Assembly (NCBI GenBank): GCA_003144275.1
Contig: NJBF01000037.1
Coordinates: 1-32,000 of the forward strand
DNA from: Candidatus Heimdallarchaeota archaeon B3_Heim
GTDB lineage: Archaea > Asgardarchaeota > Heimdallarchaeia > Hodarchaeales > Hodarchaeaceae
Direction of reading: 5' to 3'
Length of the DNA: 32,000 bases
Shown here piece after piece: positions 1-23,408 of the stretch. Position numbers and translations under genes: made by a program. Position 1 is the stretch's first letter. Each line of letters opens with the position of its first letter. A model generated the notes under the pieces. The model saw only the letters and a list, made by a program, of their open reading frames with translations. It did no database searches and was not told where the DNA came from.

Positions 1-126
1 CCAGATCCCCAAGTAGTCCCAATGGAAAGCACTCCTTCTCTGGTTGCTCCCCTGCCGGATAGCGGATGTGTGACTCATCCTGTCCAGAACTAGTTTTTAA
101 CTAGTTGTCTGACAAATTTAGTCATG
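1..126 (+). mobile_element. Right-hand part of the ~360-bp CATG-flanked element (copy A), truncated by the window start
   Basis: Positions 10-126 align without gaps to 19381-19497 with 10 substitutions in 117 nt. Ends TTGTCTGACAAA-TTTAGT-CATG (CATG at 123-126). Confidence 0.92.
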
Positions 127-5504: not shown

Positions 5505-7109
5505 TCATTTATTCCTCAAGAAAGGATTGGATTTTCTTAGTTTTTTTTTCAGAGAAATAGTCCATATAATTTCTTCTTTTTTTTTGAATTTGACAAAAAA
5601 AATCCCAATGATCAGTTGAATAGGAAACAGTGTATAACCCGAAGTACGATTTGTGGTAGTTGCTATTCGTGTTTGGATTATGGAGATGGTAATGTTCGTC
5701 AATGGACCAATACCAAAATCGACGGAATCAGTTGGCGTATGGTTCAACATGTAACTGGTAATGAAATACGATTCATCAAGTGAATCACAGGAAAAATCGC
5801 TATTAATGATCTCATTTGATTCATCGTGAAGATTTTGGTAGAATTGCCACCCGTTGGAATCATGAATAACAAGAGAGACACCTATAGCCTGAAGAGGGGC
5901 TTTTTTTATTTGGAGTGTAAATTTATCAGGTAGCTCCTTTAGTTTCAAAACATGGAAACCATAATAGCGAAGTAAGATGGTTTTGTTATGAATGGGAAAT
6001 TCATTCGCGATGTTAAAGCCAGATATTTGAGCGTTTAACTGTGAAAAGCCGTAAAGGTTATTCGCTACTTCAGGTTTATCGATTGTTACTGCGGTAATCC
6101 AATTTAAGTAGAGTTCATTGAATGTGACATTATAACCAGACGATTGAAGAACATTCTCAATACCTTTAGGACCATCAGCTGGCTCTTTGACTAATTTACG
6201 AAGGGTATCCAAACCATATTTTTCTGCAAGGTAGAAGGTAAATAGATATGCACTTCCATAATCGATAGCTCTGGGCATTCCCTCCTCGCTGTATACATTA
6301 AAATATAAGAGTGAATCTTCTGGAAGTGGAAGAAAATCTGCCACACGTGATGTTAGATTGGAATACGATGTTAGATAACCTGAATGGTACGTGGCATATT
6401 CTGCTAATCCCTCTAGAGTGAAGTGGGGCTCATCAAACTCATTGTTAAACCAAATAAGATGATGGAACTCATGCGCAATGGTGGTATGTAAATAAAATAG
6501 CCATTGAGATAGTTGGTAGTAGATGTAAATCATTTCGCATTCATTGCTGTAATCCAAAACTTGTTCGTTTCTCTGAGAATAGTAAGATGTCCAATTACGA
6601 GAAAGTAAAATAACAATTCTAGGGTCACCATCGATATCCCCTAAAGTTCCATTGGGATGGCCCGCTAAATCTGTAACTCCTGGATAGATTATATTGTCAA
6701 ATTCAGAGCAGATCGATTCTGCAAGCATATATACATTTGATTCTTCAAGCTCCGAAATGCAGCTATTCTCCAAAAAAACATAGCAATACATCCCAACACC
6801 AAATATTGTTGCGTTTATTAGATAGTATATTGAATCAGTGAAATCCCAAGACCAGAAGGTACGCTGATAGCCAACCTCAAAGGTTTCGCTGTACCGAATT
6901 GAAAACGGCACTCTTTTAGAAGATTCGAACGTCCTAGAATCCTGACCATAATGAGAGGGTTTGACAACATCGAAAGGTTGAATTATGGTCTCCATCTGTC
7001 TTTGAGTGGGAAAAATATGTGCCTGTGTTTTACCTGTGATTAGTAAACCATTTTGAGTGACTAGACTCAAGAATAAAAAAATAACAGTAAAAATTATTCG
7101 TATCTGCAC
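5505..7109 (-). CDS. Secreted, C-terminally anchored zinc metallopeptidase (HEXXH, M30-like)
   Basis: AHEFHH plus EGLAEY, and DIDGDPRIVILL. Hydrophobic N-terminus; C-terminal SGY-hydrophobic-basic tail. GTG at 7109 follows AGGTGAAGGA. Confidence 0.75.
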   Translation of the reverse strand: MQIRIIFTVIFLFLSLVTQNGLLITGKTQAHIFPTQRQMETIIQPFDVVKPSHYGQDSRTFESSKRVPFSIRYSETFEVGYQRTFWSWDFTDSIYYLINATIFGVGMYCYVFLENSCISELEESNVYMLAESICSEFDNIIYPGVTDLAGHPNGTLGDIDGDPRIVILLSRNWTSYYSQRNEQVLDYSNECEMIYIYYQLSQWLFYLHTTIAHEFHHLIWFNNEFDEPHFTLEGLAEYATYHSGYLTSYSNLTSRVADFLPLPEDSLLYFNVYSEEGMPRAIDYGSAYLFTFYLAEKYGLDTLRKLVKEPADGPKGIENVLQSSGYNVTFNELYLNWITAVTIDKPEVANNLYGFSQLNAQISGFNIANEFPIHNKTILLRYYGFHVLKLKELPDKFTLQIKKAPLQAIGVSLVIHDSNGWQFYQNLHDESNEIINSDFSCDSLDESYFITSYMLNHTPTDSVDFGIGPLTNITISIIQTRIATTTNRTSGYTLFPIQLIIGIFFVKFKKKEEIIWTISLKKKLRKSNPFLRNK

Positions 7110-7527
7110 TCCTTCACCTTTGTTGTGTATTAAATCCAACATCAGGTGGATATGAATAATCGTTGGGTATAATAATCTACATTTTCGAACAGTCGTTCGA
7201 AATTTTATTCCAATTTAATCAATAAATAAAGAGATTGTAATCGCAATGCCTGGCCAACAGGTGTAACTGAGTGTATGACATTAAGGCCTATTCATTCAGG
7301 CCACGATATCTTAAAATCAGGATTAAGTGAATCTTGAGAAAATTCATGAGTCTTCTCCATAACAGAGTGAGGAATGTCTCCCATTGCTTCACAAGAATTA
7401 ATTCTGAACTCATTGTGTATTTTTAATTAGAGGAATGTTATGCTTTTCGTAGTATATTATTGAGGAAACTTCAAATAGAATAACACCTCTTCGTATGTAG
7501 AATAGATTAGAATCTTAAATAAATAGG

Positions 7528-17971: not shown

Positions 17972-18694
17972 TCATTCAGTTACTTCAGTTTCATATTCTT
18001 CGTGGGCGAATAGAAAAGTTTTCTCAATCAGAGTATAGAAAACAACTAAAATGATTCCAATGTCAAATAATATAAGGGCTGGTTCTACTAGATGGAAAAT
18101 CATCATCAACATAATTACGTAAACATGATCATGTGAAACAGGTTGTGCTTCCTCAAATAACCAGCTAGAGTATATAGATATAACACTAAGGAAACCAAGA
18201 AATCCTAGTGCAATAGCAACTAGAAACCACACATTAAAACCCATTAATTCTGTTTTTGTGATTGTTATGTTAAAACCTATTGCCATCCACAAGAAAGTAC
18301 CTTTTCCCCCTTCTAGGACGAAATCTAACCATTCACCTGTCGTACTACTTATTCCTCTATTCCGTGCAAGTTGACCATCTACACAATCCATGATTGCTGA
18401 AACCCAGTAAATGAAACTTGCTAGTAGCAACCAGACAAAATCGTCTCCTGACAAAGCTAAAATCAAAGCACTGAGTACTGCAAGAAGAAAACCAAACCAC
18501 GTAATTCGATTTGGTGTTATGAAAGAAAGTGGATCAATGACTTTTACAATCTGGTTTGAAATATTGCGATGAAACCGAAGTGTAAATCCTTCTTTCTTGA
18601 ACGCATACTGCCCCCCTTTCTCTTCATTCGGCTTCCCTCCGATTAGTTTGGAACTTAAGTTTCTTAGACTATAATCTGTCTTTTTTTTCCCCAT
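17972..18694 (-). CDS. CDP-alcohol phosphatidyltransferase family protein
   Basis: TPNRIT and DCVDGQLAR...GEWLDFVLE, matching DxxDGxxAR...GxxxDxxxD with Glu at the last acidic position. Confidence 0.85.
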   Translation of the reverse strand: MGKKKTDYSLRNLSSKLIGGKPNEEKGGQYAFKKEGFTLRFHRNISNQIVKVIDPLSFITPNRITWFGFLLAVLSALILALSGDDFVWLLLASFIYWVSAIMDCVDGQLARNRGISSTTGEWLDFVLEGGKGTFLWMAIGFNITITKTELMGFNVWFLVAIALGFLGFLSVISIYSSWLFEEAQPVSHDHVYVIMLMMIFHLVEPALILFDIGIILVVFYTLIEKTFLFAHEEYETEVTE

Positions 18695-18954
18695 AGTATT
18701 TTCCTTCTAGAGAATTCAGATTTAAATTTGGTATCCATGACAGTAAATAGTGGAAATTTTCAGATTTTTTGGATATTAATGTAACAGAAGCCTCCATATG
18801 GCCCTTTATTAAGATTTACTATGATAATTTCCTATTTCAAAGTTACAACGGGCATACTTGGCGTGTTTAACCTGAATAAATTCTCTTTTAAATAATCATT
18901 TCTTATGGTCACTCAATATAAGCAAGGGATTTTGAAATTAATGAATTTCTCTCC

Positions 18955-19626
18955 TTATTTCAGTGAATTTTTTCTTGCTTTTATGAGATACCAAAATTGA
19001 TTGGTAATTACTATCTCTGGAGTAAATCCCACTTTGGCTAATAACGTTGAAACTACGTCTGCTGTCCGATCGTTAGTAACACGGCGTTTACCGTAGGCTG
19101 TTTCAATAGCTTTACCGCTAGGTGTTATAACATGATCATTTTTGTCCGATAATTCCATAGTGTTCATATTCGCTGACCTCTCTCTCTTTCTCTTACAAAC
19201 TTAAAAGGCGTCCCGCCCGTACTTCATCAACGCCGAGGTGATGACAAAAAAATTTACTTAGCTCCTAGGTCATATTCCCTTGTAACTTCGTTAGACGAGT
19301 TACCCGTCAAAGGCAAGAGAAGAATGATCCAGACTGGTCGAAAAGTATTGGTGTTTGGGATGTCGCCAGAAGATCTGATGCAAGTAGTCCCAATGGAAAG
19401 CAGTAATTCTCTTGTTGCTAACCTGCCGGATAGTGGATGTGTGACTCATCCTGTCCAGAACTATTTTTCAAATAGTTGTCTGACAAATTTAGTCATGGGG
19501 TTTCGCTTCATCAATTTCAGATTGGAGTTTATCGATAGCAGTTGCTTTTTTTTTCCCAATTTGGGCAATTATCCCCTCACCCCCCCCCAACATCCAGTAT
19601 AGATCCACTAGGGATTTCTTGAACAT
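18955..19626 (-). pseudogene. Small hypothetical gene (up to ~102 aa) split by element copy B
   Basis: Removing 19135-19497 joins ...EIDEAKPH to VITPSGKAIETAYG... in frame (CCC CAT GTT ATA). With the element present the frame stops at CAT GAC TAA. Start uncertain: ATG 19626, ATG 19593, or ATA/ATT after GGTGAG. Confidence 0.7.
19131..19497 (+). mobile_element. Complete 367-bp non-autonomous element (copy B, CATG to CATG)
   Basis: CATG at 19131-19134 and 19494-19497. Sub-terminal inverted repeats TTTGTCCGATAA (19141-19152) and TTGTCTGACAAA (19476-19487), each 6 bp inside CATG. About 95% identical to the reverse complement of 22165-22527. No transposase ORF. Confidence 0.93.
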
Positions 19627-19827
19627 TAATAGTTTGTCTAGGGTACTGAAAAAATTCTTCAAGATTACTTACGATCTTCATAGGAATCAAATAACATTTT
19701 TTCTATGCTATTAATTATTGGTGCGCATCTCAGACCAAAAAATCATGGACGAACGATTTCCATTATTAGACTCTATGTTATTAAAAAAGAAAAAAGAGGA
19801 GAAAATATCAAGTGGAGCCCAAAAAAT

Positions 19828-20031
19828 TTATTTTTCGGCTGCTAATTTGACATCATTCTCTTTTACGGTTTTTCGTCCATTGTGACGTGCAATTTCAACT
19901 GAATATTTGGCTAAGTTCATACCATAGTCAGTTAAGATCTCATTCAAGCGGTTAATTGCGCCAGCAGATACTCTAAAAGCGCCTGCGGTTCGAATGAGTT
20001 TTTCTACACGTGCTCGTGCAAATCCAGTCAT
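19828..20031 (-). CDS. Archaeal histone (HMf-like)
   Basis: FARARVEKLIRTAGAFRVSAGA...AKYSVEIARHNGRKTVKENDVKLA histone fold. ATG at 20031 follows GGTGA; the track uses GTG at 20040. Confidence 0.95.
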   Translation of the reverse strand: MTGFARARVEKLIRTAGAFRVSAGAINRLNEILTDYGMNLAKYSVEIARHNGRKTVKENDVKLAAEK

Positions 20032-20062
20032 ATTTTTCACCTTTTCTCAATATTAAGTTGTT

Positions 20063-20084
20063 CTGAGTCATTTAATAGACTCAG
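20063..20084. promoter_or_regulatory. 7-8-7 inverted repeat upstream of the histone gene
   Basis: CTGAGTC-ATTTAATA-GACTCAG lies between a TATA-like TTATAAATATAT (minus strand, about 20103-20114) and the histone start. Confidence 0.4.
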
Positions 20085-20376
20085 TGGTTACGAAAATCCT
20101 CTATATATTTATAAGTTTTATTCTACAACAATGCACGTTCTAGATATCTCGATGTTACTTTTTGCACTCGGATTGATTTAGCTAGCTATGGAAAATACTT
20201 TTTCACGATCTTCAAGCTGAACTAGATAATATATTATGTATTCACTGAGGATAGATACTCTATTCATAAATGATTTGAAAAAGACAATAATTTTACCTGA
20301 TGCTTCTATCAGCCAAGGGAAATAGATCTGAAAATATAAACTCGCTATCTAGAAAAAAAGGGGGAAGTGAGAGTTT

Positions 20377-22598
20377 TTATACTCTCTTTCTTCTCGAGAG
20401 AATAGGAACTGAGATAATGACTCCCATGATGCTGATAAACTCCCATCCAGGTGAGAGACTTGGAATGGTGTTATTATCAGTTGTCTCACCAGTGAATGAC
20501 TCCATAAGCTCAAATTTGAAGATTGATATTTCAGAGCCATTAGTAGAAATGGAACCAGATATTAATTCAAGCTTTTCAAGTACACCAGTTTGTCTATTCC
20601 ACTGAAATTCGAGAACTCCGTCATCAGAAGGTTGAGTTTCATTATAATTCCATGTTAGTCGATAATAATCACTTTCTTCAATTAAATAAGTATTATCGAA
20701 CATTTTGAAGTTGGATAGATTTCCATAAATTGGGAGAAAAAGGAAGTTATTAATTCCGTTTCCTAGATAATCATCTGTATTTTTATGTATTTCAACTTCT
20801 ATACCCCATTCAACAAATTCAAACATTATCAGTTTGAGTTGATCTCCCTGAGCTAAAGATAGCGGGATATTTTCTTCTGTGTTTTTATTACGAAACCATT
20901 CTGTTAAATCAACTTCAGCTGATGCACCACTATATTCAGTCAAACTATAGATGAAAGTGTCACCAACTGAAATTGAAAAGTCCTCTTGAGTAAAGCTATC
21001 ATCAGGTTTTTCATCGATTTTTGGTGGATAAAATCCCTTTCTAATCCAAATATTATCCCAAAAAACTAAGGTTTCAGTGTTAATTTCTTGGTTATCAAAA
21101 CCAAAGCCAATATTTCCACATTTAAAGACGTTAAAATCATCATTTGTGAAAATTATATAGGATTCTAGCTCTTCTTCTTGAAGAAATACCTGAGTTATTT
21201 GTTTGTCACTTTCTACAGCAACCGCTATGATTAAACGCCCCCATGTTAGTTGTGATTCCATTGGCATGGAATAAAAAGTAGATTTTTCGCCTACCTCATT
21301 TTGAGCTCCAAACTCAAGAACATTTCTCTGATAGCTATAGCGAACATACTGAACGTCTGCACCACTGTTGAATCGCCATCCAAGTAACAATATATCTCCA
21401 TTTGCAATGTGAATATCATAATCAACCTCAATGGTGTAACTGTACAAGTCTTCATAAGTTTCCAAACCAGATGTTGTTAACCAACCACTTTCTGAAGAAA
21501 CATTATTGAAATAATATCCACGCAACCATTCATTCTCAATATCCCAATTTCCTTCTGGTCCTCCATACCAGACATAAGGATCAAGATTATAGCTGGAAAA
21601 GTCATCATAGTAAATAGTTTCATCAGTTGGGTGGTCTGGAGGCGTGTGATATCCTGTATATACACTAATATTGTCAAATCGTGCAGAAGAGTTATAATAT
21701 AACCCAAAACCGATATCCTCTAAATTAGGAACATTCATCATCATACTTGAGATAACTGGTTCTCCATTTACCCAGAGATCAAGTTGTCCACCAGCTACAG
21801 CCATATGTACAACGGCCCATTTGTCCGTTGGAAATTGATAGTCAAAATCATATAAACTTCCATAAGAATCAATATAGTGAGAGTATCCCGATGTTGATCC
21901 TAATTCCATTACTGCATATCCAGAGTAATAGTTGAAAATGAAATGAAACTGTTCTTCTCCATACCCTGACAACAAATTTACATCAAAGATTACTGTATAT
22001 TCACTCATATTGAAGATCGTATCGTCTAATACTATATCATCCCACATTTCATTTGTACTAATGCCATTAAGACTATTATCAAGAAAATCACATGCACCGT
22101 TCATAACAGTCCAGTATCCATTATCTACTTCAAAATCTTGGAAATATACAAGATCATCAGGAGCCATGACTAAATTTGTCAGACAACTATTTGAAAAATA
22201 GTTCTGGACAGGATGAGTCACACATCCACTATCCGGCAGGTTAGCAACAAGAGAATCATTGCTTTCCATTGGGATTACTTGCATCAGATCTTCTGGCGAC
22301 ATCCCAAACACCAATACTTTTCGACCAGTCTGGGTCATTCTTCTCTTGCCTTTGACGGGTAACTCGTCTAACGAAGTTACAAGGGAATATGACCTAAAAG
22401 CTAAGTAAATTTTTTTGTCATCACCTCGGCGTTGATGAAGTACGGGCGGGACACCTTTTAAGTTTGTAAGGGAGAGAGAGGTCAGCGAATATGAGAAATA
22501 TGAAATTGTCGGACAAAAATGATCATGGCTTGAGGAATAGTTGTTATTAACATCGGTAAAAAGAGAAGGATTAAAAGCATTTTTTTCTGATTTTTCAT
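20377..22598 (-). pseudogene. Secreted surface glycoprotein (two lectin/LamG-like domains plus PGW-TM-basic CTERM anchor), interrupted by element copy C after the signal peptide
   Basis: ATG 22598 (GGAGG upstream) encodes MKNQKKMLLILLFLPMLITTIPQA. Removing the element plus one CATG gives ...PQA-MAPDDLVYFQDF..., 620 aa in total. C-terminus SPGWEFISIMGVIISVPILSRRKRV. Confidence 0.85.
22165..22527 (-). mobile_element. Complete 363-bp non-autonomous element (copy C, CATG to CATG)
   Basis: CATG at 22165-22168 and 22524-22527. Reverse complement of copy B with about 13 substitutions and a 4-bp indel in a CT-rich tract. Both sub-terminal TTGTC-N-GACAA palindromes are perfect. Confidence 0.93.
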
Positions 22599-22757
22599 TT
22601 TTTTGAGATCCTCCTTCTGAAAATTATATAATAATAGAACCTTCTTCATACAAAAGTACCTAGTGAATTTACTCGTTTGTAAGGCTATTAAAATTTGTAA
22701 ATGGTCAGTATGATCAATTCGAAAGATAGTTGAAACACATAAAATCGAGAAAGAGAT

Positions 22758-23408
22758 ATGCAAATTTACTTGATTAGACACGGAGAAAGTACAGGTAACA
22801 AAGAAAAAGCTTTTCAGGGATGGAATAACGTTCATTTAAGTGAACAGGGAAAAATCCAGGCTAAAAAATTGGCTGATTATCTTTTCGGGGAAAAAATTAA
22901 CCTAAGGATAATATTTTCTAGCCCTCTCATTCGAGCAATGGAAACTGCAGAACCATTAACGATTTGTTCAACTAGTCCTGATATAATTACAGTTGATGGA
23001 TTTAAATCGATTAATGTCGGTGAATGGGGAGGAATTTTGATATCAAGGGTGAAAGAGGATTTTCCAAAGGAGTACAATATTTGGAAGCATTCACCAACAA
23101 AATTCCGTTTTCCGAAAGGGGAATCCTTAACTGATGTTCACAACCGCTCCCAAGCTTCTCTTATACATATCTTGCATAAATATATTGATTTTGGTGGAAA
23201 TATCGCAATAGTTTCACATATGATTACTATCAAAGCGTTAGCATTGTGGATGCTTGGGAAAAATCTAGGAAACATCTGGAAAAAAGAATATACAGTGCCT
23301 AATACTGGTATAATGGTTTTTAAAGTGGAAAAGGAAGAATCGACCGATTTCAGTTTCCAGCGCGTTGAAATAAATAATCCTATACCACATTTAGAGTCTA
23401 CAATCTAG
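22758..23408 (+). CDS. Histidine phosphatase (phosphoglycerate mutase) family protein
   Basis: IYLIRHGES, SSPLIRAMETA, FPKGESL and IVSH motifs. Confidence 0.9.
   Translation: MQIYLIRHGESTGNKEKAFQGWNNVHLSEQGKIQAKKLADYLFGEKINLRIIFSSPLIRAMETAEPLTICSTSPDIITVDGFKSINVGEWGGILISRVKEDFPKEYNIWKHSPTKFRFPKGESLTDVHNRSQASLIHILHKYIDFGGNIAIVSHMITIKALALWMLGKNLGNIWKKEYTVPNTGIMVFKVEKEESTDFSFQRVEINNPIPHLESTI

Follow-up and report, generated by a model that had tools for sequence, protein, structure and literature searches.

Two copies of a short repeat, and a fragment of a third, lie in the window analysed here, a stretch of 32,000 nt which begins at base 1 of contig NJBF01000037.1 in the assembly of Candidatus Heimdallarchaeota archaeon B3_Heim (GCA_003144275.1; 3.95 Mb in 103 contigs, 94% complete). 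Each complete copy splits a protein-coding gene. Copy 1 measures 367 bp and has the layout CATG-6 bp-TTTGTCNGAYAA...TTGTCNGACAAA-6 bp-CATG, with 323 bp between the two palindromes and a right end which terminates ...TTTAGTCATG. This anatomy had been set out in an earlier reading of the sequence alone (the sequence-only reading), and it is present as described, as are the flanking sequences quoted there for three junctions. The repeat, which will be called the mini-element (363–367 bp), has no open reading frame (ORF): the ATG it retains opens a frame of six codons which is followed by a stop. An intron reading was rejected, copy 1 being antisense and copy 2 sense to the gene in which it resides. 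As detailed below, the mini-element is very probably a gene-less, omegaRNA-bearing derivative, formed by internal deletion, of a 1.42-kb element of the IS200/IS605 superfamily which carries tnpB only (IS1341-type).

The parental elements were recognized through BLAST and alignment. A number of additional loci match only positions q148-184 and q251-367 of the mini-element, and at these loci the two segments are ~656 bp apart instead of 220 bp, with coding sequence in between. Four intact parents of 1418–1424 bp have the form CATG-ATCAAA-TTTGTCTGACAA...TTGTCTGACAAA-TTTAGT-CATG, and their ends show the same CATG-6-TTTGTCNGACAA and TTGTCNGACAAA-6-CATG architecture as the mini-element. Each specifies one ORF of 421–458 amino acids containing OrfB_IS605 and Cas12f1-like_TNB domains (E-values 1.9e-18 and 3.3e-24); the nearest solved structures in the PDB are those of TnpB and Cas12f, and the stop codon is a TGA located within the right-end palindrome. 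In the parental TnpB a Gly replaces the RuvC-II Glu (VIGYN), a Glu precedes the zinc finger, and NADYN is found at RuvC-III; TnpBs with this type of rearranged RuvC-II have been described as RIIr-5 (PMC10691335). The mini-element aligns to the parent at its left end, q148-184 and q251-367, the ends and ~200 nt of interior being shared. What it retains is the left end, the region upstream of tnpB together with its start, a scrap of RuvC-I and a 3' module of ~120 nt. In an alignment of 30 copies from five genomes the conserved blocks are the first 24 nt, ~q45-65, the GAGGTG-ATG region, block A (q146-195) and the last ~120 nt. The remnant upstream of tnpB may act as a promoter reading through into the 3' module. 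Block A is almost invariant across mini-element subfamilies which are otherwise only 70–76% identical; it is noncoding and hairpin-forming. The features of the window are listed in Table 1.

Table 1. Copies of the mini-element, their parts and the interrupted host genes in the 32,000-nt window
Feature	Position	Strand	Remarks
Right-end/omegaRNA stub (117 nt) of a further copy	10-126	+	Cut by the contig start; an identical stub opens contig C41
Copy 1 host gene, C-terminal piece	18955-19134	-	~200-aa protein with GGGxG motif, conserved in the genus
Copy 1, left CATG	19131-19134	+	Would be the host target (TAM-like motif) under the IS605 model; CATG at 46-49/53 left-end junctions
Copy 1, left end: spacer ATCATT and sub-terminal palindrome	19135-19156	+	Kept in 30 copies
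Copy 1, left palindrome TTTGTCCGATAA	19141-19152	+	One mismatch to the family consensus TTTGTCCGACAA
Copy 1, tnpB upstream/start remnant	19194-19255	+	Blocks conserved in the 30-copy alignment; position homologous to parental left end and tnpB start
Copy 1, A/T-rich TATA-like box CTTAAAAGG	19200-19208	+
Copy 1, GAGGTG-ATG	19235-19243	+	Ribosome-binding site and start codon of the parent; early stop follows
Copy 1, block A	19276-19325	+	~50 nt left over from the part of tnpB which encodes RuvC-I; parent encodes ...LVTTSDGLLVKGG
Copy 1, omegaRNA-like scaffold and right end	19373-19497	+	Homologous to the last ~120 nt of tnpB elements, 85-93% identity to parents; contains the 3' end of the tnpB ORF, four helices, TTGTCTGACAAA, TTTAGT and CATG
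Copy 1, right palindrome TTGTCTGACAAA	19476-19487	+	Followed by spacer TTTAGT
Copy 1, right-end CATG	19494-19497	+
Copy 1 host gene, N-terminal piece	19498-19662	-	Reading frame shifted in a C9 run near 19580, beyond which (upstream) lies the true start
Copy 2 host gene (secreted protein), C-terminal part	20377-22167	-	Joins in frame to 22527-22835 after removal of the element and one CATG
Copy 2	22165-22527	-	95% identical to copy 1; sense to its host gene
Copy 2, target CATG	22524-22527	-
Copy 2, right-end CATG	22165-22168	-
Copy 2 host gene, N-terminal part	22527-22835	-	Signal peptide

The sequence-only reading had considered the architecture atypical and had not recognized the family, while allowing that a match of the ends to a described family would refute it. 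Such a match is largely what was found, since the ends and the ~200 nt of interior also belong to tnpB-only elements of IS200/IS605 type (IS1341 group) within this genome. Sub-terminal palindromes without terminal inverted repeats (TIRs), combined with a fixed target of 4–5 nt, are moreover the signature of IS200/IS605 elements and of the palindrome-associated transposable elements (PATEs) (PMC3119063). A search for a longer element with the same ends had also been suggested, and such an element exists in the form of the 1.42-kb parents, but none of the enzymes proposed for it (DEDD, serine, tyrosine, HUH or DDE) is encoded inside. An analogy had been drawn with IS110/IS1111 elements, whose DEDD transposase would here act on sub-terminal repeats. 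The only resemblance lies in the position of the repeats, sub-terminal versus terminal; the genome contains no match to DEDD_Tnp_IS110 (PF01548) and the full-length relatives encode TnpB alone, and we regard this explanation as already contradicted and of negligible probability.

The 3' module of ~120 nt overlaps the 3' end of tnpB and stops at the right-end boundary, and this position and length are those of a TnpB omegaRNA scaffold. A structure alignment of 41 distinct right ends, belonging to parents and mini-elements from six genomes, resulted in a consensus of four helices with 28 pairs. In this consensus 97% of the cells are paired, versus 28–57% with the partners slid (about 30% in slid controls), and the observed covariation score was reached by none of 500 shuffles. 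Two-sided changes were found in eight pairs; all six pairs of helix 2 are compensatory, and the apical hairpin of helix 4 covaries too. Half of the right-end palindrome pairs with an upstream CAGA. Helix 3 is formed by the terminal AGTCAT and a GTGACT further upstream; it is invariant and hence without independent support. A scan of positions 18500–23000 against Rfam (E-value mode) returned no family. The DNA fold of the whole element is no more stable than that of shuffled sequences (z = -0.46), structure being confined to the right-end module. The module is, more likely than not, a functional omegaRNA. Taken as a whole, it is very likely that the mini-element is a PATE, or standalone omegaRNA mini-transposon, of TnpB elements.

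The architecture is not a product of chance: there are 53 BLAST matches to the element in the genome, about 18 of which represent full-length copies with unrelated flanks, and four of the 21 further genomes from the genus contain copies as well. The repeat also turns up, in other contexts, on contigs from unrelated cold-seep and marine-sediment metagenomes; these contigs do not cover the present locus, and they depart from the sequence of the window exactly at 22164/5 and 22527, thereby providing independent confirmation of the element boundaries. Elements with these ends in the genome are about 33, 146, ~360 or ~1420 bp in length. No gene besides tnpB occurs in any of them, nor in their relatives from other Asgard metagenome-assembled genomes (MAGs), in which the left end lies ~135 nt upstream of tnpB. 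The earlier description of copy 1 as a mobile element lacking a transposase was right.

The shortest form (33 bp) consists of CATG-6 bp-single palindrome-6/7 bp-CATG, that is, of left and right ends fused at the palindrome. Such terminal-only forms are located at C8:64499-64531, C35:1462-1494 and C50:11147-11179 of this genome, and another sits in an unrelated metagenome contig (L171:1114-1146). The 146-bp form, at C57:96043-96188, is without block A. An exact-pattern scan for the parental left end matched one metagenome contig, which carries only a 33-bp terminal-only form, and no viral contig. Contig edges fall inside copies of the family at C8:1-224 and C82:1-224 (left end and tnpB start) and at C86:10-126 and C41:10-126 (right-end stubs); since the family breaks the assembly, the copy numbers given here are underestimates. 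Another tnpB-only family, unrelated to the first and ~1.66 kb long, is represented in the genome by at least six copies at ≥85% identity, including C38:57938-59598, C61:21532-23188, C82:50635-52296, C96:23641-25294 and C63:46818-48156. RuvC-II is canonical (TEDL) in its TnpB, which also has an HTH_OrfB_IS605 domain at its N terminus; tnpA is missing from this family as well.

An empty CATG site, which the sequence-only reading had suggested looking for in relatives, is present for copy 2 in Heimdallarchaeota MAG_8 (G013). There the site reads CAAGC-CATG-GCTCC, with a single CATG, within an intact frame of 629 codons that includes the signal peptide. Members of one subfamily are 100%, 99.2% and 98–99% identical at unrelated loci, which indicates that the family has moved recently in this genome. 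Mobility is thus established by the empty site in a relative together with the 98–100% identical copies at unrelated loci.

It had further been proposed that exactly one CATG belongs to the host and that both split genes are restored in frame on that basis. This holds for copy 2, as the empty site in G013 demonstrates, but only partly for copy 1. The intact orthologues in G020 (L047) and G018 (L048) have their CATG (codons Pro-His) at the point of the right-end junction of copy 1. Compared with these orthologues exactly 74 codons (222 nt) are gone, flush with the boundary between left end and CATG; given this loss and the frameshift, the in-frame join does not rebuild the original gene. Pfam searches with the short host-gene fragments yielded nothing. 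In G013 a truncated tnpB right end, pointing the opposite way, takes the place of the entire gene. The locus may be a hot spot for element-adjacent deletion.

Flanks were counted at 53 left and 48 right junctions. The junction tetramer is CATG in about 90%; the sequence-only reading was right as to the CATG target, and the sub-terminal palindromes which it pointed out are conserved. Position -5 of the left flank is occupied by A25, C14, G9 and T5, in a genome with 32% T, and position +1 of the right flank by A27, G13, T5 and C3. The resulting target consensus, V-CATG-R, is not its own reverse complement, and this asymmetry ties the orientation of the element to that of its target, as in strand-specific insertion and not as with a symmetric staggered cut. 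The right end always reads T-CATG, so that the base carried there is the one depleted beside the left end. The published logic of the transposon-adjacent motif (TAM) and the transposon-encoded motif (TEM) has it that sites occupied by the element have to be spared by TnpB (PMC10055086), and the T at -5 of the right end would fit that logic.

Several observations weigh against an ordinary IS200/IS605 element, the first of which concern the ends. The left end possesses no stable single-strand hairpin (predicted folding energy 0 kcal/mol), only the 12-bp palindrome, and no convincing pairing was found when IS608-style 4-nt guide/cleavage-site pairings were sought on it. It does resemble the inverted last 22 nt of the right end, at 17/22 positions in this copy, 19/22 in the parents and about 21–22/22 in one relative (L064); inverted-repeat-like ends of this kind are atypical for IS200/IS605. 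The poor match of the outer 6 bp which had been remarked upon earlier is a feature of this subfamily; in the parents these spacers match 4/6 as inverted repeats. A CATG on both sides is also formally indistinguishable, by sequence, from a 4-bp target duplication, although the asymmetric flanks favour no duplication. The remaining points concern the enzyme. No Y1 TnpA was detected in the 94%-complete assembly, either with Pfam Y1_Tnp (PF01797) or with a hidden Markov model built from five Asgard TnpAs (none at E≤10), and at this completeness its absence from the genome is unproven; the three further genomes with the most copies did not yield a TnpA either. Matches to Y1 TnpA occur in 11 of 81 genomes of the class. 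Two of these are in the genus, both degraded, and both adjoin a different, unrelated IS605-type TnpB element without these ends. A missing TnpA is usual for the IS1341 group.

These same properties could be accounted for by a TIR-bounded cut-and-paste family, in which an unidentified DDE-type or Cas1-like enzyme would recognize the 22-bp inverted ends, make a 4-bp staggered cut and leave a true CATG duplication. The inverted-repeat-like ends (19/22 in the parents, about 22/22 in L064), the CATG on both sides with a single CATG in the empty site, the left end without a hairpin and the failure to find TnpA all speak for such a family; DDE (IS630)-linked TnpBs with symmetric ends, as well as Asgard Cas1-linked TnpBs, have been described (PMC10691335). 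However, only tnpB is ever carried between these ends. The genome specifies no Cas1 (PF01867), and the 1.42-kb elements have no space for a second gene. Its multi-copy DDE insertion sequences have unrelated TIRs and generate a 9-bp target duplication; for this reason, and because the flanks are asymmetric, the mini-element does not qualify as a classical DDE-type miniature inverted-repeat transposable element, even though its ends are inverted-repeat-like (17–22/22). A symmetric enzyme inserting in random orientation would furthermore not produce the combination of A/C at -5 with A/G at +1, and in the bacterial relatives of the TnpB clade a link with Y1 TnpA is found and the right-end terminus is the same. 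A family of this type is therefore an improbable source of the mini-element.

Site-specific recombination is a second mechanism to which the palindromes might point. The TTGTCNGACAA palindromes would be occupied by a recombinase dimer, of the serine (IS607-like) or tyrosine type, with crossover taking place in the CATG core shared by the ends and the target. At both ends a perfect 12-bp palindrome stands at a fixed distance of 6 bp from a palindromic 4-bp core, one copy of the core is left in the empty site, and IS607 elements often carry TnpB (PMC10691335). The 33-bp solo forms resemble the product of palindrome x palindrome recombination, but repeat-mediated deletion explains them equally well, as in the PATEs of Haloquadratum (PMC3119063). 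The core of IS607 is GG, while here it is CATG, and a palindromic core would not give rise to oriented, asymmetric flanks. No IS607-type serine recombinase is present in the assembly, the sole resolvase being Hin-like with a C-terminal helix-turn-helix, while the IS607 enzyme has a MerR-like helix-turn-helix at its N terminus. We consider recombination of this kind very improbable. The gene for this Hin/resolvase-type recombinase adjoins a reverse-transcriptase-like ORF of 417 amino acids (C2:~5600-7450) on a 7.7-kb contig, which may be retron-like, a plasmid or phage fragment, or mis-binned.

Indications of a Y1 TnpA, an HUH enzyme of the kind named among the candidates of the sequence-only reading, come from bacteria. 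Bacterial relatives of the parental TnpB clade (27–33% identity) adjoin Y1 TnpA at four loci. In one TnpA-linked relative, from a Merismopediaceae cyanobacterium MAG (L120; 620-740 and 2380-2560), each end bears a classical direct hairpin of 23 nt, and the right end terminates in ...AGTTAGTCATG, as in the Asgard elements. Conservation of the GTCATG terminus therefore extends from Asgard archaea to cyanobacteria. We incline slightly towards mobilization by a trans-acting Y1 TnpA which is now absent or unassembled.

The alternative is that the tnpB-only family and its mini-elements move without Y1 TnpA, by an undescribed route; the palindromic CATG might be acted upon in a step which depends on TnpB, or a new enzyme or a host factor might be involved. 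This alternative is considered because the left end resembles the inverted right-end terminus, because neither the genome nor the copy-rich congeners yielded any known TnpB-associated transposase, and because copies at unrelated loci are 98–100% identical; we nevertheless think it unlikely. If true, the archaeal lineage most closely related to eukaryotes would possess a prokaryotic equivalent of the eukaryotic transposons which are bounded by TIRs and carry Fanzor. A specialist is likely to be surprised only by this part, in which an atypical left end is combined with recent mobility and no known transposase.

For the mini-element as a derivative of IS200/IS605-type tnpB elements the following cycle can be proposed. 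Insertion would be strand-specific and take place 3' of a V-CATG motif. It would involve no real duplication, the second CATG being the element's own right-end cleavage motif (TCATG). A Y1 (HUH) TnpA, not in this assembly, would act in trans. Transcription from the retained tnpB promoter would produce an omegaRNA whose guide corresponds to the DNA just past the right end. With this omegaRNA of the mini-element, the TnpB of full-length copies could then act in trans and cleave V-CATG sites from which the element has been lost, and homologous repair after the cut would reinstate it. The TCATG at the right end, with T at -5, would guard occupied sites against self-cleavage.

A repeat which disrupts at least two genes in the window and occupies dozens of loci in the genome is hereby explained. 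The exact boundaries, the target V-CATG-R and the likely TAM of an Asgard TnpB with rearranged RuvC-II are provided, and these could serve TnpB engineering. The family also adds a clear case to the puzzle raised by the PATEs of Haloquadratum, namely that tnpB-only elements and their gene-less derivatives seem to be recently mobile without detectable TnpA.

The element belongs to a class which is already known, that of PATEs and standalone omegaRNAs. The latter, within the OMEGA (TnpB) systems, go back to Altae-Tran 2021, as cited in PMC10691335. Standalone mobilized omegaRNAs work in trans with compatible effectors (PMC10691335), and omegaRNAs are often encoded by PATEs and used by TnpB in trans (Meers 2023, PMC10055086). 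Like these, the mini-element retains the scaffold and right end of TnpB loci in the same genome, carries no effector or transposase gene, and exists in many copies, each of which would by analogy have a different flank as guide. It differs in that it also keeps the tnpB promoter/start region and the conserved RuvC-I scrap.

Members of the IS1341 group of IS200/IS605 with RIIr-5-like TnpB (PMC10691335) share with the parents the OrfB_IS605 and Zn-ribbon domains, the RuvC-II E to G replacement, the alternative Glu ahead of the zinc finger, NADYN at RuvC-III, an omegaRNA over the 3' end of the ORF, and bacterial relatives which are occasionally linked to Y1 TnpA. The family described here differs in having no TnpA in the genome or the copy-rich congeners, and in a left end without the hairpin which the cyanobacterial relative has at both ends. 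From the Asgard aCas1-TnpB transposons (PMC10691335) it is distinguished by the absence of a Cas1-family gene beside tnpB. The experimentally characterized members ISDra2 and IS608 resemble it in having a target motif on the 5' side of the left end and a related motif which closes the right end; by analogy, excision would be scarless, leaving the target beside the right flank, and the TnpB guide would derive from the right flank. ISDra2 and IS608 have distinct TAM and TEM motifs (TTGAT, and TTAC/TCAA). They also possess long imperfect hairpins at both ends, whereas in the present family the two motifs differ only at -5 (V versus T).

A further close parallel is found among the PATEs of Haloquadratum walsbyi (HqIRS families). 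PATEs, defined in 2011, are gene-less, with near-terminal palindromes, a 4–5-nt target, no duplication and ends in common with IS605/IS1341-type transposons; they originate by core deletion and can be reduced to terminal-only forms, and their insertions differ between strains even where every tnpA is a pseudogene (PMC3119063). Both groups of elements are gene-less and have near-terminal palindromes without true TIRs, a fixed short target, ends in common with tnpB-bearing IS605/IS1341-type elements of the same genome, an origin by core deletion, terminal-only forms (33 bp here, 52 bp in Haloquadratum) and strain-specific insertions despite the lack of an intact tnpA. The present family, in contrast, resides in an Asgard host of the Heimdall group; its palindrome is much shorter (12 bp) and its left end is without a stable hairpin, its target and right-end motif are the same tetranucleotide, CATG, and its ends can at the same time be read as inverted repeats at 17–22 of 22 positions.

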